A stretch of DNA of 64,000 nucleotides from contig CAYGYG010000001.1 of assembly GCA_964354155.1 (NCBI GenBank), forward strand, positions 139,121 through 203,120, written 5' to 3'. The DNA comes from an uncultured bacterium (lineage in GTDB: Bacteria > Hydrothermota > Tepidihabitantia > SM23-42 > CAYGYG01). Of the stretch, positions 4,988 through 62,173 are shown piece by piece. The position numbers and the translations under genes were made by a program. Every line of letters starts with the position of its first letter. Position 1 is the first letter of the stretch. The notes below the pieces were generated by a model, which saw only the letters and a program-made list of their open reading frames with translations, was not told the DNA's origin and ran no database searches.

Positions 4988-6631
4988 ATGAAATACCTGA
5001 TGACCCTTATGGTCCTGGTTGGGATTGGCTTGGCTTTCACGCCCAACTCGTTTCGACTGCAGTCGACAGCGTACCTGTTTGAAGATGACTACGACCTGAT
5101 ATTCGATCCTGCGCGGCTGCCCCTTATCGAAGGTTCCCGTCTTTATACGAACCTATCCAATCTCGTCAGCAGTGATGAGGATGTGTTCGGTCCGATCAGC
5201 ATGGACTACTACCTTTTTGCTGGCTCGACCAAGCTCGGCTCGGTCTATCCGGGGATGATCTACGACAACTACTCAGCCAAGGATCCTAACTACACCGGCC
5301 TGCGGGACCGTTTCGGTGATTCGCTGTACGGCGATGCGCAGACCGACTCGATCAGCCTGTTCGACCTGGACGGCAACGGCCTGTATGACTACAAGACCGT
5401 TGATGCGCGCAAGGCCAGCGCCTGGGATAAAGAAACCAACGTCAACTTCCTGCTCGGCTTCGGCAAGCGAGTGGGTGAGAACATGCGCGTCGGGTTCGGC
5501 TACTACCGGTTCGTCGACCGGTTCAAGAACATCTCGCCCGCCTTCAACCACGTCTACGATCGAAAGGACTCCAATCTCGTCAGTTCGATCTGGACTTATT
5601 CGCGTTATGATTCAGCGACCGGTGAATACAACAGCTTCGACAACGGGCACGAGTTCCATCTCAGCGGCTGGCGCGATGCGGAGAAGATGAATGTGGGTCT
5701 CGGAGTCAAATTCATCATGGAGTCGTACGGTTACGAAAATATGACTACCTCCATGCTGGATGAGAATCGCAGTCCGAACAATCCCGCGGTTGTCGACTAC
5801 AAGAAAGTCAACGTTACCGATTCGACCGACTTCACGCACTCCGGTTTCAGCATTCCGGTCACGGCGAAAGTGTTCTACAACTGGAACGAGAAGACCCAGA
5901 GCCGATTCTACCTGACCTACGAAATGGGGAACTTCAACATCGTTGACGATGCGCGGGGCTACGGCGTTGTCTCGGCTGACAGCACCTGCCGGCCCGGCTT
6001 GATGCTGGTCAACGATACGATCAACCACAACTACTTCGGCAAGTATAGCGAGAGCAACATCACGCTCAACACCCAGCACTTCTTCAAGGTCTCGGACCGC
6101 GTCGACCTGGCCTTCGGCCTCGGCGTGGCCAACGAGACCTACTCGGACGAGGTGAATGACAGCATGGTAACCTACCGGCACCTTTCATACAATGACGGCG
6201 ACACGCTGGCGGATCGCGATGACTCGACCGTCGTGACGAACGGCGTCGAGTACTGGAAGTCGATGGGTACCGGGGTCACCAGGTCGCTCTGGCTGCCTGT
6301 AGGCGTTGAATTCAAAGTGATCAACCCGCTGGTGCTGAGACTCGGTGCCATCCACACGATCACGATGTACGATGACACCCAGACCGAGAACTTGGTCGAG
6401 ATCAATCCGCTCAAGACCAAGGTCACGTATGGCGACGGTACAACCCGTGAAGCGATCGCGAACCAAACCCGCAAACCTTCGACCGTAACACCGAAACCGA
6501 CCACGAGTGTCACGACCTACACCTACGGCATCGGCTGGGCGGCCGCCGAGAACCTGCAGATCGACCTGATGGGCTTTGCCCGACTCACCGATCTGACGAA
6601 CTGGAAGCTGTCCGCAACCTTTAAATTCTAA
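4988..6631 (+). CDS. putative outer-membrane beta-barrel protein
   Basis: N-terminal signal peptide (MKYLMTLMVLVGIGLAFT). Rich in alternating aromatic/polar residues. C-terminal motif ...LSATFKF ends in Phe, the classical OMP terminal signature. Confidence 0.6.
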   Translation: MKYLMTLMVLVGIGLAFTPNSFRLQSTAYLFEDDYDLIFDPARLPLIEGSRLYTNLSNLVSSDEDVFGPISMDYYLFAGSTKLGSVYPGMIYDNYSAKDPNYTGLRDRFGDSLYGDAQTDSISLFDLDGNGLYDYKTVDARKASAWDKETNVNFLLGFGKRVGENMRVGFGYYRFVDRFKNISPAFNHVYDRKDSNLVSSIWTYSRYDSATGEYNSFDNGHEFHLSGWRDAEKMNVGLGVKFIMESYGYENMTTSMLDENRSPNNPAVVDYKKVNVTDSTDFTHSGFSIPVTAKVFYNWNEKTQSRFYLTYEMGNFNIVDDARGYGVVSADSTCRPGLMLVNDTINHNYFGKYSESNITLNTQHFFKVSDRVDLAFGLGVANETYSDEVNDSMVTYRHLSYNDGDTLADRDDSTVVTNGVEYWKSMGTGVTRSLWLPVGVEFKVINPLVLRLGAIHTITMYDDTQTENLVEINPLKTKVTYGDGTTREAIANQTRKPSTVTPKPTTSVTTYTYGIGWAAAENLQIDLMGFARLTDLTNWKLSATFKF

Positions 6632-6646: not shown

Positions 6647-7867
6647 ATGAAAAAGCTCCTAATCATTTCCGCGGCAATCCTTCTGGTGCTTGCCTGCGGT
6701 AAGAAAGACAATCCCCTGGAGATTGACAAGATCCTGGTCGGGGGCGGCGATGCCGATCTTTGCACCGTGGCGGGTGTGAGTCCGGGCAACCGAACCCAAC
6801 TCGTAGATGAAAATCCGTCTACCACGCCGATCGAAGCAACGGTCCAGGTCGTTTTCAGCAACTTCATGGACCCGGCATCTCTGACCAGCACGAGTGTGAA
6901 GGTCAAGAGCACGACGTCCGGCAGCGAGATCACGACCGTGCTGAACTACAACAAGGACGCCAGGGTGCTGTTCATCCGTTCCGATAACTGGCCTACGTCC
7001 CAGGCGTTTCTGCTGACGATCGTGTCCGGTGCGAGTGGCGCGAAGAACGTGTTCGGCACGGCGATCGACGGTGATGCCGACAACTTCGACGACGGTACGC
7101 CATATGATGACTATCTCTCGACCTTCTTCACCGCGGGCAGTGCCGCCGACAGCTGCGTTGGTGTGATCGCGGACCAGGCGCGGATCGCCTCGATCACGCC
7201 GGCCCGGGCCATGAACACCAACCTGCGGCCAGCGGTCGCGGTTACGTTCAATCGCGCCATGGATACGTTGACCTTCACCGGCTCGACGATCCAGCTGGCG
7301 GCCGAAGGCGGCGCACCGGTCTCGGTGACCTGGGCGCCTAAGACGCCAACCGTGGCTTCGTTCACGCCCTCGGCGGATCTGAGCTACGGCACCAAGTACA
7401 TCATCAAGGTCGTGAGCAAAGACACAAAGAGCATCCAACTGGCTAATACACCGGCCTATCTGGTTCCGCTCGACGGCAACCGCAACGGACCGCAGCAGAC
7501 CGAGCCGGATACAATAACCTACTTTGTCTGCGATACGGCCGCGGCTCCGACCGTGACGGCCGCGAGGATCACTGGTGGCGTCAGCTTCACCTTCTCGCGG
7601 ATCATGGATACGACCACGACCTCGACGGTGAATGTCAAGGTCTTCGACCGCGATGGCTATGTGCCCGGAAGTTTCGTCTTCTCGACCCCGGGCGGCAACA
7701 CGACCAGGATCGAGTACTACTTCCAGCGTACCGTGACCCTCCCCCTGGACGCCTTCGTCAGCAAGGAAGCGAAGGCCACTAACGGCAAGAAACTGGATGG
7801 TGAGACGACCCCCAACGGTATCGGCGGCGAACCATGGGATGATTACTGGAGAAGGAACGTGCCGTAG
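6647..7867 (+). CDS. lipoprotein with repeated bacterial Ig-like (SbsA/Big_5-like) domains
   Basis: Lipobox LVLAC-G after the signal peptide. Repeated blocks ITPARAMNTNLRPAVAVTFNRAMDTLTF / VTAARITGGVSFTFSRIMDTTTTSTVNV. The gene lies 16 nt downstream of the OMP gene. Confidence 0.6.
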   Translation: MKKLLIISAAILLVLACGKKDNPLEIDKILVGGGDADLCTVAGVSPGNRTQLVDENPSTTPIEATVQVVFSNFMDPASLTSTSVKVKSTTSGSEITTVLNYNKDARVLFIRSDNWPTSQAFLLTIVSGASGAKNVFGTAIDGDADNFDDGTPYDDYLSTFFTAGSAADSCVGVIADQARIASITPARAMNTNLRPAVAVTFNRAMDTLTFTGSTIQLAAEGGAPVSVTWAPKTPTVASFTPSADLSYGTKYIIKVVSKDTKSIQLANTPAYLVPLDGNRNGPQQTEPDTITYFVCDTAAAPTVTAARITGGVSFTFSRIMDTTTTSTVNVKVFDRDGYVPGSFVFSTPGGNTTRIEYYFQRTVTLPLDAFVSKEAKATNGKKLDGETTPNGIGGEPWDDYWRRNVP

Positions 7868-7916: not shown

Positions 7917-8207
7917 GTACCATCAAGTGAGTCTGGTGTAGCGCGCGATAGATCACTCGACGTTCAAGTGACTTCGGCAAGCCTTCGGAATATCGTCAGT
8001 ACCGGGATTGCCACGGGTCGATTGCATCGGCTCTCGCAATGACACACACGGAGTTTGCTGAATACCCACAATCATGAGAAGAAGCTCCCAGAATGTGAAA
8101 ATCTGTTGGACGCATCACACTGGGAAAGCGATATCGTAGAAAATCGCCCAAAATCGTTGTTGCTATGTCATGGGAAATTGCTATAATCGATGCGAACAAG
8201 ATATCTT

Positions 8208-8501
8208 ATGCTCGGCATGACGCTTAACGAATACCAGACGCTCATCAAAGACATTTATTATGACAAAGACGCCAAGCGCGGTCTGGCCCGGACCTTCGGC
8301 TGGCTCGTCGAGGAGATCGGGGAGCTATCAAGGGCAATAAGGCAGGAAGACAAGGCCGCGATTCGAGAAGAGCTTGCCGACTGTTTTGCCTGGCTCTTGA
8401 GCGTGGCTTCCATTCTGGAAGTCGACGCCGAGTCGGCGCTGGCCAAGTACCGGGACGGTTGTCCCAAGTGTCGTAAAAAACCGTGCACATGCACAGAATG
8501 A
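8208..8501 (+). CDS. MazG-like nucleoside triphosphate pyrophosphohydrolase domain protein
   Basis: MTLNEYQTLIKDIY...WLVEEIGELSRAIRQEDKAAIREELADCFAWLLSVASILEVD is the MazG/EEIGE-type all-alpha NTP-PPase fold. TATAAT lies at about 8176. The start codon (8190, 8208 or 8217) is uncertain. Confidence 0.6.
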   Translation: MLGMTLNEYQTLIKDIYYDKDAKRGLARTFGWLVEEIGELSRAIRQEDKAAIREELADCFAWLLSVASILEVDAESALAKYRDGCPKCRKKPCTCTE

Positions 8502-8673
8502 AAGGAAAACCTGCAGAGGATCAGATCATCAGGGCATCAGTAGGTAGAACACCAGCGTACCAGGATATCAGGAGCTAGCATCTCCGTGATCTATCCGCAC
8601 ATCACTGTAATCATCGATGCCTTGCACCGTCTCCACTGTAATCAGCGCCAACTCCAGTTGGCGAGGAGGTTTC

Positions 8674-9792
8674 ATGCTTGAAGTCATTTTGGCCCTGAGC
8701 ATCACCGCGCTATCCCCGCCGTCTGACGTCAGGGCCGTCGATACCCCCAACGACGGCGGAGGATCGATCGGTGTCCGCTGGCAGCTTTCCCCGGATGACG
8801 CGCTGGTCAGCGCTTATCGTATTGAAAGGGCTGAGGCCGGCAAGGATTTTGTGGATATCGGTTTTGTACCCCGGGCCACGGGTGTATTTGTCGATACCCG
8901 GGCGGCAGGCCGAGTCAAGTATTCCTATCGCATCGTTGCCCTCCAGGACACCATGCGGTCTGCTTCAGAACCGACCGGCGACGTATTCAGTTACGGACAG
9001 TGGTTTCATACCGAGCGGGTCAATGTCATCGTCGGGATCATCATTTTTTGTGCACTGATCCTCTGGTTTGTATATCATGCCCGCCGGGGCAAGGAGCTCT
9101 TCATAAGACGAATCGCCGGACTGGATGCGGTCGAGGAAGCCGTGGGTCGGGCCACCGAAATGGGCAAGGCAATTCTCTACGTGCCGGGCCTGGGATCGGT
9201 GGGTGATGTCGCGACGATTGCTTCGCTCAACATATTAGGCGAGGTGGCCCGCAAGACTGCCAAGTACGACACAACGCTGCTGGTGCCGAATCGCGACGCC
9301 ATCGTCTTTACGGTCGCCCAGGCCATGGTTAAGGAGGCCTATACCCGGGAAGGCCGGCCCGACGCGTACAAAGAGGAGAATGTCTTCTTCATCACCGACA
9401 GCCAATTTGCCTATGCCGCGGCCGTCGACGGTCTGATGGTGCGGGAGAAACCGGCAACCAATTTCTTCCTGGGCATGTTCTGGGCCGAATCATTGATCTT
9501 GGCCGAAACCGGGGCAACGACCGGGGCCATCCAGATTGCCGGTACGGACTCGGTCTACCAGCTGCCGTTTTTCATCACGGCGTGCGACTACACGCTGATC
9601 GGCGAAGAACTTTACGCCGCCTCGGCCTATCTTTCCCGCGAAGCCACCCTGCTCGGTTCGCTCAAAGCCCAGGACTACGGTAAGATAATCATCATCACCC
9701 TCATCATCCTTGGTTCGGCGCTCATGCTGGCCGGCACGATCGGTGGTCTCGGATTCCTCAGAGAGATCTACGGCTTCTTCTCGGTCAGCTAA
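8674..9792 (+). CDS. membrane protein with N-terminal FN3-like ectodomain, TM helix, about 230-aa cytoplasmic domain and C-terminal TM helix; function unknown
   Basis: GAGGAGG RBS before the ATG at 8674 ([14 protein letters not shown]). TM segments: [19 protein letters not shown] and [25 protein letters not shown]. It is the first of four translationally coupled genes. Confidence 0.6.
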
Positions 9793-9803
9793 GGAGGTTG
9801 ACA

Positions 9804-10424
9804 ATGCAACGACGCATTCCCATGACGATCTGTCTCGTAATGGGGATTTTCATGATCGTCCAGTACATGATTCCTCATCGAGTCTCGACCCAGGCCTACG
9901 AAGAGATGCTGAAGTGGGACCGGATCATCATCGCCTTCGCCTTGATTCTCTCGACCGGAAGTCTGGTGACGCACCACTGGTCGAAAATCAGGCGGAAGAA
10001 ACAAGGTTGGTACTTTAGCATTGTCACCCTGATCGGCCTGGCCATTACCGCATTCATTGGTGTGGGCTGGGGTATCCGGGCGGGCACGGCGCTTCACACC
10101 ATCTTCATAAATATGATTGTGCCTCTGGGTTCGTCGATGTTTGCCATCCTGGCGTTCTACATGGCTTCGGCGGCCTATAGGGCATTCCGGGCGCGTAACA
10201 AGGAAGCGACCCTGCTTTTGATCGCGGCGTTTATCGTGATGCTGGGCATGGTGCCGATCGGTTCGTTTCTTTGGGACAAGCTGCCCGATGTCGCACAGTG
10301 GATTCTCAATGTGCCTAACCTGGCGGCCAAGCGGGCGATTTTCTTCGGCGTGGCGCTGGGCGTAATCGCGACTTCAATCAAGATTATCTTCGGCATCGAA
10401 CGCGGCTGGATAGGAGGCAAGTGA
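9804..10424 (+). CDS. multipass integral membrane protein, unknown function
   Basis: AAGGAGG RBS. About 6 hydrophobic helices. Its start lies 12 nt after the upstream stop. Confidence 0.6.
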
Positions 10425-10425
10425 C

Positions 10426-11268
10426 ATGAAAGCATTCGAATGGCTTTTCAAGATTGACCGTCGGATCATCTTTCTGATCCTGGCCGCAGTCGTGATCCTG
10501 CCCTTGCTGGTCCCACTCAACCTGGGCGTGAAGATATCTCAGCCGGTCAAGGACTTGTTTGACGAGATCGACCGTCTTGAACCACGGAGCAAGCCGCTGA
10601 TGATTTCGGTCGATTTTGACCCTAACTCGATGCCCGAATTGTACCCGATGTATTTGGCGGTTCTGCGTCATGCCTTTGCCCGGAATATCAAAGTTGTGAT
10701 TCTGGGGCTCTGGTTGACCGGCATCAACATCGGCGAGGAAGGTTTGCGCGAGGTGTCGGCCGACTTCAAAAAGGTCAACGGACAGGATTACGTGTTCCTG
10801 GGTTGGAAGGCCGGGATCGCGGCCGTAATCCTGGGGATGGGCGAGAGCATAGAGCGGGTTTTCCCGGCCGACTATTACAACACGCCGCTCGATTCGCTTC
10901 CGCTGATGAGAGATGTCCGGAACTACTCGGACATCCCGTTTTTCGTCTCGCTGTCCGCGGGCGACCCCGGCTACCGGCAGTGGGTCACCTATGCCGGGTC
11001 CAGCTACAGCCTGCGTATCGGGGCGGGCGTCACGGCCGTTTCGGGCGCTGATGCCTATCCGTACCTTCAGACCGGTCAATTGGTCGGATTGCTGGCCGGC
11101 ATGAAGGGCGGCGCCGAATACGAGAATCTCCTCGGCAAGGCGGGTTACTACACGGGAGCTCAGATTGCGACCAAGGCGATGGATTCCCAGTCTCTGGCTC
11201 ACCTGGCTATCATGATCCTGGTGATCCTCGGCAATGTCGGGTTTCTGTTGGCAAGGAGGAAGAAATGA
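10426..11268 (+). CDS. bitopic membrane protein with large extracytoplasmic domain and C-terminal TM anchor, unknown function
   Basis: N-terminal TM helix (IIFLILAAVVILPLLV) and C-terminal TM helix (LAIMILVILGNVGFLL). Its start lies 2 nt after the upstream stop. Confidence 0.6.
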   Translation: MKAFEWLFKIDRRIIFLILAAVVILPLLVPLNLGVKISQPVKDLFDEIDRLEPRSKPLMISVDFDPNSMPELYPMYLAVLRHAFARNIKVVILGLWLTGINIGEEGLREVSADFKKVNGQDYVFLGWKAGIAAVILGMGESIERVFPADYYNTPLDSLPLMRDVRNYSDIPFFVSLSAGDPGYRQWVTYAGSSYSLRIGAGVTAVSGADAYPYLQTGQLVGLLAGMKGGAEYENLLGKAGYYTGAQIATKAMDSQSLAHLAIMILVILGNVGFLLARRKK

Positions 11269-11894
11269 CGGTATTCTGGACCTGGGTTGGTGCGCTGTTG
11301 ACACTCTGCATATTCTCCTTCCTGTACAAGGATAACCCGTTCTACAAGTTCGCCGAGCACCTTTTTGTCGGTATTTCGCTCGGCTACAGCATCGCCGTGA
11401 CGTGGCATAACGCGGTCTTCCCCGAGCTCTACGTGCCCTTGTTCCGGGACTTCCACCTTGCCAATCTGCGGCTGCTCATACCGTTCATACTGGGGCTCAT
11501 GTACCTTACGCGGTTTATCCCGAAGCTGTCGTGGATGTTCAAGCTGCCGATTGCGTTTCTGCTTGGCCTGTTCTCAGGCGCGGCGATCCCCCGCGAGTTC
11601 CAGGCCAATATCATAAAACAGATTCAAGGAAGTCTGCTGACGGCCGACTCATTCGCGAGATGGGATATTGCCCTTTTTGCGATAGTCGGGTTTGTCGGGG
11701 TTCTCTGTTCGCTTCTCTACTTCTTCTTCTCGCGCGAACGGAAGGGCATCCTGAAGCCGGCGTCGGAGATCGGCATTGTCTTCCTGATGGTTGGATTCGG
11801 CGCTTCGTTCGGCTATACGGTGATGGCGCGCGTCAGCCTGCTGATCGGCCGGGTACAGTTTCTGCTGGGTGACTGGCTGCATATCATCAAGTAG
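11265..11894 (+). CDS. multipass integral membrane protein, unknown function
   Basis: ATGA overlap with the upstream gene. About 6 TM helices. Confidence 0.6.
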   Translation: MTVFWTWVGALLTLCIFSFLYKDNPFYKFAEHLFVGISLGYSIAVTWHNAVFPELYVPLFRDFHLANLRLLIPFILGLMYLTRFIPKLSWMFKLPIAFLLGLFSGAAIPREFQANIIKQIQGSLLTADSFARWDIALFAIVGFVGVLCSLLYFFFSRERKGILKPASEIGIVFLMVGFGASFGYTVMARVSLLIGRVQFLLGDWLHIIK

Positions 11895-12379
11895 GGGGTC
11901 AGGCCGTTCTGGCGCAAAGTGACCGAGTCGCCCTAGAAGCCTTGCTCCGTATGCCGTAGGGGCAATTCACGTTGAAAATCCCGGCCTGAGGGAAATTGCC
12001 CTTCTCTTGGGCGGTTCTTGTTGAAAATCCCCACCGAGACAAAACGCCCCTACATAATCCTTTGCCGATGAGCCTATTGATCTCGGCATTGATTCGTTTA
12101 CAGAAGTGAATAGAATCCAAATGCTTCTCCCTACGGCACGCCTGTGTCCCCCCACGGGGCCTTAGGCCGGAGGGAGACACAGAGGTGACTTCGTTCAAGA
12201 TGACAAGCAGGAGTGTCATTCTGAGTCCCGCTTTGCGGGACGAAGAATCTCAATTAGAGCCTTAGGCCGTCGTCAGACATAGGATCAACGATACTAACGT
12301 TATAGCGATCATAAGGTCTGTCATCACTGTAATCTGCCGTTCTATCGTCCTAATCTATGTGCCTCTGGCACAAAGAAAA

Positions 12380-12405
12380 GGGTAGAAGAGAGATCTCTTC
12401 TACCC
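12380..12405. terminator. bidirectional intrinsic terminator (perfect 26-nt palindrome flanked by A-run and T-run)
   Basis: gggtagaagagaGAtctcttctaccc with aaaag upstream and tgattctttt downstream. It sits 22 nt past the stop of the convergent minus-strand lipoprotein gene. Confidence 0.7.
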
Positions 12406-12427
12406 TGATTCTTTTGGTCGAGCGTCT

Positions 12428-13027
12428 TTACTTAATGTCGGACGAGGTCAGTACAACATCAGCAATAGTCTTTATTCCAACTACCGTATTCTCAGAATGC
12501 GTGTGAACACTGCCAACACCTTTGGCAAGCCATGAATAGGAAATGAAGCCGGCGATGTTGTATTCGACCTTCCAGGCTGTGTAGTCGCCCGCCTCAACGG
12601 TGACGTCCTCTTCGGCAATCACCTTGGCGGTGACGCCGCTGTCCGGGTGCCAGGTTTTGCCGGCTTCAAGCGGCAGCGCCAGCACCGTGTCCGGCTTGGT
12701 GTCGTCAAGCTTGGCGTACGAGAGAATGTAGTCGCCGGCGTCAAGCAGATAGTAGGTGCTGGTTGATGAGGTCGTCTGGCCGGTTGATTTGATGGTCGTG
12801 TTTGTGGTGGAGGAGAATTGGACGACGTCTTCGCCGCTGGTCAACTTGGCTTCGGCCTTTGCCTCGGTCTTTGAAGTGCTGGTGGTTACGATCGTCGTAT
12901 CGGTTTTGGTATAGCCCGCGTAGTTCCACACGCTGCCTACCGCCATTGGCGAATAGTCAGCTCCGCCGCCGAAGATACCACAGCTGACAAACATCAAGAT
13001 CGGCAAAGCTAAGAGTAGTTTTTTCAT
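12428..13027 (-). CDS. lipoprotein, Thr/Ser-rich, unknown function
   Basis: MKKLLLALPILMFVSCG is a signal peptide plus lipobox. An ORF extension to 13057 is possible. Confidence 0.55.
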   Translation of the reverse strand: MKKLLLALPILMFVSCGIFGGGADYSPMAVGSVWNYAGYTKTDTTIVTTSTSKTEAKAEAKLTSGEDVVQFSSTTNTTIKSTGQTTSSTSTYYLLDAGDYILSYAKLDDTKPDTVLALPLEAGKTWHPDSGVTAKVIAEEDVTVEAGDYTAWKVEYNIAGFISYSWLAKGVGSVHTHSENTVVGIKTIADVVLTSSDIK

Positions 13028-13272
13028 TTTTCTTGTCACCTTTTCGGTCTGGTTCAATCATCTTGACCCGTTTGCTGCTATCTGGAATCGGGCCGCATAA
13101 AGGGCATGGCACCCTGGACAGGATAGTCGGTGCTGTGCATGTTTCCGCAGGGAGGTTCCTTGTTGAGCCGAGGAACAGGTGCCAATCATATTCCGGAAGA
13201 TGTAGTTAATTGGCAATTATAGCGGGAATCCTCGAAATGTCAAGTGTCCGGATATTCTCTAGCCGTTTCAGG

Positions 13273-22033: not shown

Positions 22034-22515
22034 TGGAGGGCCCTCCATCGATTACAATGATGAACAGATAGATTACTGTGATGGAGGAGCTGATCCCTCG
22101 TTTTACTCGGGACGATGCGTGGCATCGGATTACGGAGATAGAACGATTCAGACAGATTCACCCCGTTAGAATAATTGTATCGGAACGATTGCTCTGGCTC
22201 GTATGATGCGTCGACTATTACTGACGACACAACTACAAATCGGTAGAACCCAGGTATTTCTAACGGGGTAAAGCGGATGCACACTGATGCTCTGCAAGTA
22301 GCGAGTGGCAAGGAGCAAGTAGAGAGTTGGGAGATCACGTTTAGAACGTTGCAAACGTTAGTAACGTTAATGACGTTCAGATTACCCCGTATCTCCATGG
22401 CTCTTAGCCGGTACTCATTGCTCATTGCAGTATCCCCTCCGCGCCTCTGCTCCTCCGCACCCCTGCGGTTTTTGTCGTAGTCCATTACTCCATCATTCCA
22501 TGCTTCCATCATTCG

Positions 22516-59833: not shown

Positions 59834-61987
59834 CTATCGCAGAACGAGGAGCTTCTTGGTCACCGACCGCGTGCTCGTCTGTAAGTTGACTCGATAGACG
59901 CCGTTCGGCAGTAAGGCCCCGGCATCGCTTCGGCCGTCCCACACCAGGGTGCGGGCTCTTGGGTCTTGTTTTGAACTCATCAGTGTTCGCACACATCGTC
60001 CGGCAACGTCAAAGATCTTCAGCGAGACGATGTCATTCGGGTCGGCGTTGCCCAGGCTGAACGCGAGCCGCTTGTTCGACTTCGACAACACCGGACAAGG
60101 GGAAATATCTATGTCGAGCAGCTCATCCGATGGGTTGATGACCTCAACCGTGTCCTGTCCGGCGAATCCGGTGCCATCCCGGAGATTGCCCGAGACCGTC
60201 AAGATGGCGAGCCCGGGTTGAAGAATCGATATGACACGCTGCCGGTCGAACTTAGCCATGAAGTCGGGAACACCATTACCATTGTAATCACCAACCCCGC
60301 AGGGCACACGATTGGCACTGACGGCACGGCCTTGATATTCCAGCTTCACAGTATTGATGTCGATACTGTCAACCGGAAGCCCGGCAAGTTCGATGTAGGC
60401 GGTGATGGGTTTGCCCACGCTCTTGAGGTTTATGACATTGGGATCGATATCGATCCGTGCGTTCGTTGTCGAACCGTACTGTACTTTCACTTCGTACAAC
60501 AATGGGAAACGGGTCAGATTGGCATATCCGAACCGTGCCCGGTACTGCAGGAAGCGGGCGTTGAGCTGGGCCGGTATTTCTGAATTGTTCGTGACGGTAA
60601 CCCAGGTGCTCCAACTGGTGTCCGGGATTGGTGTACGGCCGCTTCTCACCGCCATCGTAATGCCGGTTCCGGCCGGCAGGCTATCCAGCCAGGTGATTCG
60701 ACCCCAATCAACGGCCGAGGCAGCGTCGAACACAGAAGACAGATAGTCGTCGCAGTATTCGCGGCTATAGACATTGCCTCCCTCCCGGTACATGCCGTGG
60801 CCGCCGTGGTCACTCGGCAGCGCAAGCCATGAAGTGAAGGATGGGCCCCAGGCGATGTAGCTGGAAGTCCCGTTCCACCGATTGAGAAACATGTCAAGAT
60901 CGCCGTCGGCGTCAAGGTCGGCAAGAAAGGCGCCGCTACAGTCCAGGGTCGGACCGACCTGGCTTCGATTGCTGTCTGAGTAGCCGTTCGCGCTACCCCA
61001 GTAGATCCATGGCATAGTCACCGGGCCGTAACCGGTGAAGAAAAGAATGTCGAGGAACCCATCACCGTTCATGTCGGCCACCGAGCTGCCTCCAAAGCAG
61101 CTACCCGGACTGAGAACGGTGCGATTGCCCGTCGAGTACCCCGATGGGTTACCCCAGTAGATGTGGGCGACTGATGAACCGGCATACGTGCTCAGCACGA
61201 GATCGAGGTATCCATCGCGGTTTAGGTCAGCCACCGAAGACCCGTGGGAAAGGGACGCATAGTAGGGCAGGAGTGTCCGGTCCGCCGACGAAAACCCGGT
61301 GTTTCGTCCCCAGTAGATAGTGTTACTGCCGTTTATTGAAAGGAGCAGTAGGTCAAGCCAGCCGTTCCTATCGAAATCACCAACCTCGGCATTGTGGTCA
61401 CCACCTACGTTAGGTAGTTCCGTACGCCGGCCTTCGGAATACCCGGTGCTGCTGCCCCAGAAGACCGCTGCGGTCGAGCCGGTGTAGGCCTCGGCGACGA
61501 TATCAAGGTGGCCGTCCTTGTTGAAATCGGCAATGGCCATGGCCTCATTCGATCCGTAGTATAAGCCAAACCGAAAATAGTTGAATGGATCAGGTCCAGA
61601 GCTCGTACCCCAGTAAATGGTTAGATAAGGGTAGTTGATCCAGAGCAGGTCGGGAAATCCATCGACATTGAGATCGGCGGCATCGCAGTTCCCGCCGCGG
61701 CTTGCGCCGTATGCGGTGCGGTTGACCGGGTCGTACCCGCTCGCACTGCCCCAGTATACGTAACTGGTTGAGAAGCAGTGCGACATGGCAAGGTCAACAT
61801 ACCCATCGTTATTAAGGTCGAATCGACAAGTAAACTCAACCGCCCCGCCCTGACGGTGCGACGCGTAGATATTGCGTTCGAACGTGCCGTCACGGAAATC
61901 CTGTTGGCTCGTCTCGAGCCACGAGCATTCGGCAGTGGAGCCGGGCGACTGCCCTAAAGCGATTAACCAGATAAGCAGTCCCAGCAT
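59834..61987 (-). CDS. FG-GAP/VCBS-repeat (integrin-alpha-like beta-propeller) protein with T9SS C-terminal domain
   Basis: At least 8 repeats with DxNxDGxxD Ca-binding loops (DLNNDGYVDL, DLNVDGFPDL, DFNKDGHLDI, DFDRNGWLDL, DLNRDGYLDL, DMNGDGFLDI, DLDADGDLDM). T9SS tail ...GVYRVNLQTSTRSVTKKLLVLR. AAGGAGG RBS before the ATG at 61987. Confidence 0.75.
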   Translation of the reverse strand: MLGLLIWLIALGQSPGSTAECSWLETSQQDFRDGTFERNIYASHRQGGAVEFTCRFDLNNDGYVDLAMSHCFSTSYVYWGSASGYDPVNRTAYGASRGGNCDAADLNVDGFPDLLWINYPYLTIYWGTSSGPDPFNYFRFGLYYGSNEAMAIADFNKDGHLDIVAEAYTGSTAAVFWGSSTGYSEGRRTELPNVGGDHNAEVGDFDRNGWLDLLLLSINGSNTIYWGRNTGFSSADRTLLPYYASLSHGSSVADLNRDGYLDLVLSTYAGSSVAHIYWGNPSGYSTGNRTVLSPGSCFGGSSVADMNGDGFLDILFFTGYGPVTMPWIYWGSANGYSDSNRSQVGPTLDCSGAFLADLDADGDLDMFLNRWNGTSSYIAWGPSFTSWLALPSDHGGHGMYREGGNVYSREYCDDYLSSVFDAASAVDWGRITWLDSLPAGTGITMAVRSGRTPIPDTSWSTWVTVTNNSEIPAQLNARFLQYRARFGYANLTRFPLLYEVKVQYGSTTNARIDIDPNVINLKSVGKPITAYIELAGLPVDSIDINTVKLEYQGRAVSANRVPCGVGDYNGNGVPDFMAKFDRQRVISILQPGLAILTVSGNLRDGTGFAGQDTVEVINPSDELLDIDISPCPVLSKSNKRLAFSLGNADPNDIVSLKIFDVAGRCVRTLMSSKQDPRARTLVWDGRSDAGALLPNGVYRVNLQTSTRSVTKKLLVLR

Positions 61988-62173
61988 AATGTCCTCCTTT
62001 GTCAAGAAACATCGCACAACTCATTACACACCCTGACGCGAACTGAATCGATTTATTCGAAGATAGTATACCTGAATGCCCCGGCATGTCAAGCCTTTTT
62101 TTTGGGTACGGCGCGATGGGTTTCAGCTTGACTTTGCTGGGGTGTCCGCTATAATCTACCAGAAGGAGGAACA

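Follow-up and report, generated by a model that had tools for sequence, protein, structure and literature searches.

What role does an operon of four membrane-protein genes play when it recurs, in the same order, across a broad set of uncultured bacterial phyla? We address this question for the copy at positions 8674 to 11894 of a 64,000-nucleotide stretch of contig CAYGYG010000001.1, from an uncultured bacterium; this whole stretch is referred to below as the window. A first-pass annotation of the window had described the four genes, here g1 to g4, as one operon of integral membrane proteins, and all four open reading frames (ORFs) are present exactly where it had placed them. We propose that the four products very probably form a single complex, presumably a stoichiometric one of the inner membrane, a view that draws on comparative genomics, and we consider below what such a complex might do. 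The genes are as follows.

8674-9792, plus strand: g1, 372 amino acids
9804-10424, plus strand: g2, 206 amino acids
10426-11268, plus strand: g3, 280 amino acids
11265-11894, plus strand: g4, 209 amino acids, its start overlapping the g3 stop codon (ATGA)

All four proteins contain membrane helices and the genes are coupled at their junctions, which bears out the reading of the cluster as one operon of integral membrane proteins. A Shine-Dalgarno site accompanies every junction of the window operon: the TAA of g1 is followed by an 11-nt gap containing AGGAGG, g2 and g3 are separated by a 1-nt gap with AGGAGG lying within the 3' end of g2, and g3 and g4 share a 4-nt overlap, ATGA, with AAGGAGG upstream. 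Of the junctions given earlier as 12, 2 and -4 nt, the last stands and the other two become 11 and 1 through a difference in counting convention alone. The first in-frame ATG of g1 is at 8617; we place the start at the ATG at 8674 because of the GGAGG at 8664-8668 and the N-termini of the orthologues.

Conservation and probable modular organisation of the operon

How widely is this arrangement kept? In a tblastn search with the four proteins, 33 of 36 distinct genome loci (L003-L038) carried all four genes in the same order. The exceptions are L019, which breaks off after g2, and L029 and L037, which differ in gene order. According to the record titles these loci come from WOR-3, TA06, Stahlbacteria, Hydrothermus, Zixibacteria, Latescibacteria and Fermentibacteria (phylum names throughout are those on the records of the metagenome-assembled genomes, MAGs), and further loci with the same cluster were found in Eisenbacteria, Poribacteria, Candidatus Fermentibacter daniensis (Hyd24-12), Candidatus Sabulitectum and additional Zixibacteria. 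In total, the cluster with its order and tight junctions was found in about 45 fetched loci, and the four-gene operon is present in at least nine mostly uncultured phyla: WOR-3, TA06, Stahlbacteria, Hydrothermae, Zixibacteria, Fermentibacteria, Eisenbacteria, Latescibacteria and Poribacteria. The junctions have medians of 9, -1 and -1 nt (32-33 loci). Proteins identical to those of the window were found on metagenome contigs, the closest genome-resolved relatives are MAGs of candidate division WOR-3, at most 77% identical, and between phyla the four families are 45-65% identical. The families are also large; g1 has more than 8000 homologue clusters at 90% identity, and g3 has 4302 representatives at 50% identity with E<1e-3, 877 of them with E<1e-30. 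The conserved order and coupled junctions across these loci are the strongest evidence at hand that the four products work together.

Several loci show how the unit may be divided. Zixibacteria locus L028 has an extra pair, g1' and g2', after g4 (L028:3894-5596), in which g1' has no fibronectin type III (FN3) domain and instead carries a signal peptide, and in L029 the gene order is g3-g4-g1-g2. Thus, the unit behaves as two pairs, g1+g2 and g3+g4, and we infer that the complex is made of two two-gene modules. The g2 gene adjoins g1 in all loci. A second whole cluster is present in Zixibacteria locus L051 (L051:12859-14861, in addition to the first), and Fermentibacteria locus L044 encodes a lone additional homologue of the g1 core (L044:16770-17924) adjoining an acetyltransferase gene.

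Domain organisation of g1

The four products had been described as being of unknown function. The g1 protein does have a family, as residues 108-353 (nt 8995-9732) belong to Pfam family DUF6754 (PF20539; E 2.4e-121, 404 bits against a cut-off of 27, model positions 3-248 of 257), and the same family is matched by 29 of 29 g1 orthologues tested; g2, g3 and g4 have none. DUF6754 is a catalogue entry without function, structure or literature and covers one of the four subunits; our literature search found no paper mentioning DUF6754 or PF20539.

The layout of g1 is an N-terminal hydrophobic leader, an FN3 domain at about residues 17-106 (nt 8722-8991), a membrane helix at 116-134, the DUF6754 core and a second membrane helix at 338-356. 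The FN3 domain has a profile match to titin FN3 (5e-9); residues 17-106 are modelled by AlphaFold with a predicted local distance difference test score (pLDDT) of 80-90, and Foldseek aligns them to FN3 domains with a template-modelling (TM) score of 0.78. Pfam fn3 was found in five of 29 g1 orthologues, and Foldseek with the whole g1 model returned FN3 matches only. The domain of about 200 amino acids between the two helices sits on the side rich in lysine and arginine, the cytoplasmic side, as judged by lysine plus arginine (K+R) counts over the alignment. The FN3 domain would therefore lie outside the cell and the DUF6754 core inside it, a topology that agrees with the cleavable-looking signal peptide on the FN3-less Zixibacteria paralogue g1'. 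The earlier architecture for g1 (FN3-like ectodomain, membrane helix, cytoplasmic domain, membrane helix) is borne out by the FN3 matches and by this topology.

The core is very highly conserved: about 65 positions are invariant in 29 sequences sharing 50-77% identity with the window protein. Stahlbacteria g1 proteins carry coiled-coil inserts. Two short motifs were considered as nucleotide-binding sites and rejected. The GxGxxG of the window protein (G172-G174-G177) is not conserved, the family consensus being PGLSxxSD, and GRATEMGK does not fit the Walker A pattern GxxxxGK[ST].

The soluble domain of g3

The g3 protein consists of a membrane helix (residues 12-28), a domain at residues 39-239 (nt 10540-11142) and a long C-terminal membrane helix (247-279). 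It had been annotated as a bitopic protein with a large extracytoplasmic domain; a domain of about 200 amino acids is present, and with a helix at each end of it the protein is not bitopic. An AlphaFold2 model from a 125-sequence alignment has a pLDDT of 92.3 and a predicted TM score (pTM) of 0.88, and in this predicted model the domain is a six-stranded, Rossmann-like alpha/beta fold whose strand ends carry the conserved acidic residues D63, D65, E71, D121 and D149. Because both termini are rich in lysine and arginine, we place the domain in the periplasm, a placement that agrees with a homologue bearing CARDB repeats in a surface loop. In this homologue (P0356), about 550 amino acids of repeats, one of them matching Pfam CARDB, are inserted after residue ~113; similarly, homologue P0391 has about 350 amino acids of HEAT repeats inserted in the loop after residue ~113. 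A third homologue, P0435, contains a tandem duplication of the whole domain.

A Foldseek search of the g3 model against the PDB gave no match with E<1e-3, and the best TM scores were about 0.3-0.44; the fold is thus a generic one without an identifiable relative. The best, weak matches were single Rossmann halves of GT-B enzymes (TM score ~0.3). We do not assign g3 to GT-B, as the matches have E values of at least 2.6e-3, TM scores of 0.2-0.35 and root-mean-square deviations of 13-16 Å, and as the domain has a single lobe on what is predicted to be the periplasmic side. Neither Pfam nor NCBIfam has a family for the window protein, nor does Pfam for 30 orthologues. Nine of the 30 orthologues touched DUF2249, with a best E value of 7e-4, below the cut-off; we rejected this candidate as a local strand-DxDP-helix likeness alone. 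We likewise rejected a resemblance to motifs of the oxaloacetate decarboxylase beta-subunit, because in the g3 model the stretch in question forms a buried strand and helix of the soluble domain.

The polytopic proteins g2 and g4 and the overall architecture

Both g2 and g4 have about six hydrophobic helices, which in both are glycine-rich and highly conserved. The N- and C-termini of g2 are both cytoplasmic (K+R 11.4 versus 5.0), and for g4 the two values (6.5 versus 5.7) are too close to assign an orientation. No Pfam or NCBIfam match was found for the window proteins or for 31 orthologues of each; the orthologues gave noise-level matches alone, for example TMD0_ABC in four of 31 at 1e-3. 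Alignment of N- against C-terminal halves with hhalign found no internal repeats in either protein, and neither has an invariant acidic residue midway along any membrane helix. Taken over the four proteins, the K+R counts and hydropathy suggest a complex that has some 16 membrane helices and exposes conserved soluble domains on either face of the membrane.

Comparison with characterised systems

Could the operon be a divergent version of a known system? The statement that it shows no motifs of known transporters holds for Pfam, NCBIfam and PADLOC with the four proteins, for Pfam with the orthologues and for PDB profiles. The earlier annotation had also suggested a check for remote homology to a characterised system, and here too nothing emerged from PDB profile searches of all four proteins, which returned nothing except FN3, or from Foldseek with g1 and g3. 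Family members are named in the databases "hypothetical protein", "DUF6754 domain-containing protein" or "fibronectin type III domain-containing protein". An ABC or ABC-2 ATPase with Walker A and B motifs is absent from the window cluster and from about 45 orthologous loci, and g2 and g4 match no family of MFS, RND or other secondary transporters. In PADLOC, three of the proteins have no match to anti-phage defence systems and g2 has a 16.8-bit match to a transmembrane region (E 0.001). Between 8400 and 12500, Rfam yields no match even at E values as high as 1, and at the gathering threshold the whole window yields two tRNAs only.

Three groups of systems resemble the operon in outline. BcsA-BcsB is an inner-membrane machine that works independently of ATP; it combines an alpha/beta domain in the cytoplasm, a path through the membrane and, anchored in the membrane, a periplasmic partner built of alpha/beta and beta-sandwich domains. 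Synthase-dependent exopolysaccharide secretion of this type is like the operon in logic only, not in homology, although some neighbours of the operon are glycan-related. In contrast to BcsA-BcsB, the operon encodes no family 2 glycosyltransferase (GT-2), no PilZ and no Pfam match to components for cellulose, alginate or poly-N-acetylglucosamine, and the fold of g3 matches neither BcsB nor any other PDB entry. In the gliding-associated ABC-2 system GldA/GldF/GldG and other ABC-2 permease sets, a permease of about six helices stands beside a protein with a periplasmic alpha/beta domain between terminal membrane helices. The operon resembles these sets in that architecture, and they occur in the same broad bacterial group; unlike them, it has no ATPase gene in or beside it at any locus, no ABC2_membrane or ABC_transp_aux match and no Walker motif. 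Finally, the polysaccharide co-polymerases (Wzz/PCP) and the BatA/BatB von Willebrand factor A (vWA) proteins share the topology of g3, helix-periplasmic domain-helix with both ends cytoplasmic, but g3 and its 30 orthologues have no such Pfam match and no vWA or PCP structure is among the 50 best Foldseek matches. In addition, the end of the first strand, where a vWA domain would carry its MIDAS motif DxSxS, reads DFDP in g3. By every test that we ran, these negative searches point to a four-gene unit that is unrelated to any characterised system.

Possible functions of the proposed complex

We tentatively propose that the complex, working independently of ATP, makes a component of the envelope (for example a glycan or lipid-linked precursor) or moves it across the cytoplasmic membrane. 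The cytoplasmic DUF6754 domain of g1 would bind or process the substrate, g2 and g4 would form its membrane path, and the g3 domain together with the FN3 domain would receive or hold the product at the outer face. Catalysis or transport, rather than a pure scaffold, is suggested by the ~65 invariant residues of the g1 core and the conserved acidic strand ends of g3. An envelope cargo is hinted at by the weak GT-B matches of g3 and by neighbouring genes for Wzi, SLBB, phosphomannomutase and glycosyltransferase proteins and for two nucleotide pyrophosphatases, MazG and a type I phosphodiesterase. A gene for a Wzi-like outer-membrane protein follows g4 in many WOR-3 loci; other flanks include an SLBB (Wza-like) gene, a phosphoglucomutase/phosphomannomutase gene, a type I phosphodiesterase gene that overlaps the g4 stop, and a PMT_2 GT-C glycosyltransferase gene with GT4 and epimerase genes. 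These neighbours lend the locus a hint of envelope-glycan flavour.

A number of points weigh against this proposal. No subunit is homologous to any glycosyltransferase, flippase, transporter or secretion component, and the complex itself is inferred from genomics only. There is no universal neighbour, many loci being flanked by genes of unrelated housekeeping function (EF-G, transketolase, DNA polymerase III); envelope genes are common in these genomes, and their enrichment here may be due to chance; and in Zixibacteria and Fermentibacteria the recurrent neighbour is instead an ASKHA-type ATPase, PF13941. Moreover, the AlphaFold model of the g1 core is poor, with pLDDT of 30-50 and values below 50 over residues 139-167 and 243-333.

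Other functions can be imagined for the same parts. The operon could encode several subunits of an ion-coupled, secondary transporter or of a channel that carries a small solute, with g2 and g4 as the permease, g1 supplying a cytoplasmic regulatory domain and g3 a periplasmic substrate-binding domain. Some 16 membrane helices without an ATPase, the glycine-rich, highly conserved helices of g2 and g4, and a membrane-anchored g3 domain that could resemble a tethered binding protein would all suit such a device. We nevertheless consider it doubtful, because similarity to a transporter family was found in none of Pfam, NCBIfam and the PDB, g2 and g4 have no internal repeats and are mutually unrelated, the mid-helix invariant acidic residue is missing, and the g3 domain is single-lobed, unlike known binding proteins. 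A structural or morphogenetic platform, tying the cytoplasmic membrane to the wall, the outer membrane or cytoplasmic filaments, would account for the FN3 ectodomain of g1, for the big CARDB/Ig or HEAT inserts tolerated in the g3 surface loop, for the coiled-coil inserts of Stahlbacteria g1 and for the bactofilin, ParA-like and PF13941 genes found among the neighbours in some phyla. The invariant polar residues in the DUF6754 core, g2 and g4 are, however, denser than a tether would need, and no subunit has a peptidoglycan-binding or known cytoskeletal domain, so that we regard this role as quite unlikely.

It is highly improbable that four unrelated membrane genes merely lie side by side or form a mobile or defence island. 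A third copy of the upstream repeat described below could have suggested an element boundary, but order and coupling are kept over at least nine phyla, the flanks are housekeeping genes that differ between lineages and no other part of the window repeats the intergenic DNA. A defence island or phage origin was rejected on the same housekeeping surroundings and the lack of a significant PADLOC match.

A bolder version of the envelope-machine proposal can also be framed. The operon would represent a new class of ATP-independent envelope machine, confined to candidate phyla related to the Fibrobacteres-Chlorobi-Bacteroidetes group and built of two ancient, oppositely oriented modules, each comprising a six-helix partner and a protein whose Rossmann-like domain is held by a membrane helix on either side, with conserved alpha/beta domains that face the cytoplasm (g1) and the periplasm (g3). 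The sizes of the modules match (g1 core 265 amino acids versus g3 280; g2 206 versus g4 209), the pairs behave as units, and the g1 and g3 soluble domains would face opposite ways across the membrane. The similar pair sizes and this opposite placement suggest an old inverted duplication of the type g1+g2/g3+g4, which is speculation. Paralogy of g1 with g3 and of g2 with g4 was rejected, as were internal repeats in g2 and g4, because hhalign probabilities were at most 2.6% at all settings; a likeness of strand and helix patterns seen by eye is no evidence. We rate this extended scheme as a distinctly unlikely one.

Conserved operons of unknown role are not rare in uncultured phyla, and this operon alone answers no long-standing question. 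Three of the four abundant families have no family entry, however, and none has a known function. The host organisms, such as Candidatus Fermentibacter daniensis, are common in sediments, hot springs and anaerobic digesters, and a complex with domains on both faces and no ATPase likely has a basic role in the envelope or membrane transport of these lineages. Solving its function would annotate thousands of "hypothetical proteins" together and could bring to light a membrane machine of a new kind.

The upstream repeat and the flanking intergenic regions

Is the operon marked by a regulatory signal? The following features surround it.

8190..8501, plus strand: MazG-like nucleotide pyrophosphohydrolase gene, 103 amino acids (Pfam MazG, 7e-12), 172 nt upstream of g1
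8601..8613, plus strand: distal repeat copy, ATCACTGTAATCA; not conserved in L045
8632..8644, plus strand: proximal repeat copy, TCCACTGTAATCA, 30 nt ahead of the g1 start; L045 and L046 retain it as ATCACTGTAATCA
8646..8663, plus strand: palindrome/hairpin CGCCAAC-TCCA-GTTGGCG, directly 5' of the ribosome-binding site
12323..12335, plus strand: third repeat copy, ATCACTGTAATCT, in a part of the intergenic region not conserved relative to L045
12379..12406, no strand given: terminator-like hairpin with a 12-bp stem and T-runs on both strands; conserved in L045

A direct repeat upstream of g1 had been reported, and it exists, at positions 2-5 nt away from those given: the copies of CACTGTAATCA occupy 8603-8613 and 8634-8644, with a spacing of 31 rather than 34 bp. 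The further copy placed at 12319-12330 is also present, as ATCACTGTAATC at 12323-12334. A degenerate copy, ATCGTCCTAATCT, follows at 12344-12356, 21 nt after the third copy, whose belonging to the operon is doubtful. The repeat statistics and motif scan cover the 64-kb window. Within it, the exact 10-mer CACTGTAATC occurs at 8603-8612, 8634-8643 and 12325-12334, three times against 0.11 expected, a count reached in none of 100 shuffles, and six sites match ATCACTGTAATCA with at most two mismatches, against 0.94 expected. Among these six is a further same-strand pair, of the ATCAnnGTAATC motif, on the minus strand at 22049-22082 with a spacing of 21 bp; it falls inside the last codons of a 160-amino-acid ORF (22512-22030) that precedes, with ATGA coupling, an RsmB/F-type rRNA methyltransferase gene (22033-21116). 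The same-strand pairs are thus spaced by 31, 21 and 21 bp, roughly whole helical turns.

The closest relative, L045, whose g1 is 89% identical, keeps the proximal copy, the palindrome and the ribosome-binding site. The stem of the palindrome is conserved there and its loop differs (TCCA versus TTGA), and the palindrome forms in the minimum-energy structure of 8630-8690 (z = -2.45). Of 39 loci, 37 lack the exact 10-mer, and the two carriers, L001 and L002, are from the same organism. The proximal CACTGTAATCA and the palindrome probably belong to a promoter or operator particular to this lineage and are not a family-wide signal.

The first-pass annotation had gone further and read the repeat as a regulatory element that might define a regulon. 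Copies of CACTGTAATC could be sites of one regulator whose regulon includes the operon, and the over-representation of the motif, the regular spacing of the same-strand pairs and the retention of the proximal copy in the nearest relative would fit. This reading is nonetheless unsupported and seems unlikely to us: the distal and third copies are not conserved even in that relative, the 10-mer is missing from nearly all loci, and the second pair sits within an unrelated coding region before the rRNA methyltransferase gene, a setting without a functional link to the operon. The scan, moreover, reached only 64 kb of the genome.

Two further interpretations of this region were rejected. As a sigma-70 -10/-35 pair the repeat fails, since the second position of TGTAAT is not an A and the sole TTGCAC is 9 nt upstream; the stretch 8502-8673 gave no call of a promoter-like site. 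The fold of 8630-8690 also contains an anti-Shine-Dalgarno pairing (UCUCC with GGAGG), which L045 does not share.

Downstream, the hairpin at 12379..12406 sits between g4 and a convergent DUF3108-like lipoprotein gene (12428-13057, minus strand) and is probably the end of the operon transcript. The spacer between these convergent genes, 11895-12427, is unusually long at 533 bp, and the closest relative alone has a similar sequence (77% over 244 nt). The similarity covers the first ~300 bp, where indels of 22, 21 and 39 nt show that the spacer is not coding. A non-coding RNA in the spacer was rejected, as Rfam gives no match, the window holds no second copy and the other loci lack the sequence. 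Two window-specific inserts in the spacer both begin with GTTGAAAATCCC (11971 and 12020).

Neighbouring genes

The MazG-like gene precedes g1 in most WOR-3 loci and in L040 overlaps it by 4 nt. Upstream of the MazG-like gene, the window encodes a 547-amino-acid protein (4988-6631) and a Big_5 Ig-like lipoprotein (6647-7867). The former ends in a C-terminal Phe, has an outer-membrane beta-barrel-like sequence and matches no Pfam family. This block is conserved in the closest relative only, and two DUF4139/DUF4140 genes precede it (L001, L045).

The PF13941 ("MutL/GlmL-like") gene is found near the cluster at L044:10712-13462, L051:9077-10891 and L029:5-742 and is absent from the window. The Fermentibacteria PF13941 protein is fused to a protein that in Zixibacteria is encoded as a separate 378-amino-acid gene. 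The PF13941 protein could be a cytoplasmic partner of the complex.

DUF3108 genes occur near the cluster in the window, where the gene at 12428-13057 on the minus strand converges on g4, and in Poribacteria, where there are two upstream genes (L043:1888-2739 and 5313-6101); their presence at both loci may be coincidence. Finally, genes for secreted proteins with FlgD_ig or Por_Secre_tail domains at the C-terminus, sorting signals of the type 9 kind, are frequent around the cluster in several lineages (59834-62017 on the minus strand of the window, and in L040, L042, L049 and L050), and these signals indicate that the organisms probably use a type 9-like secretion route.

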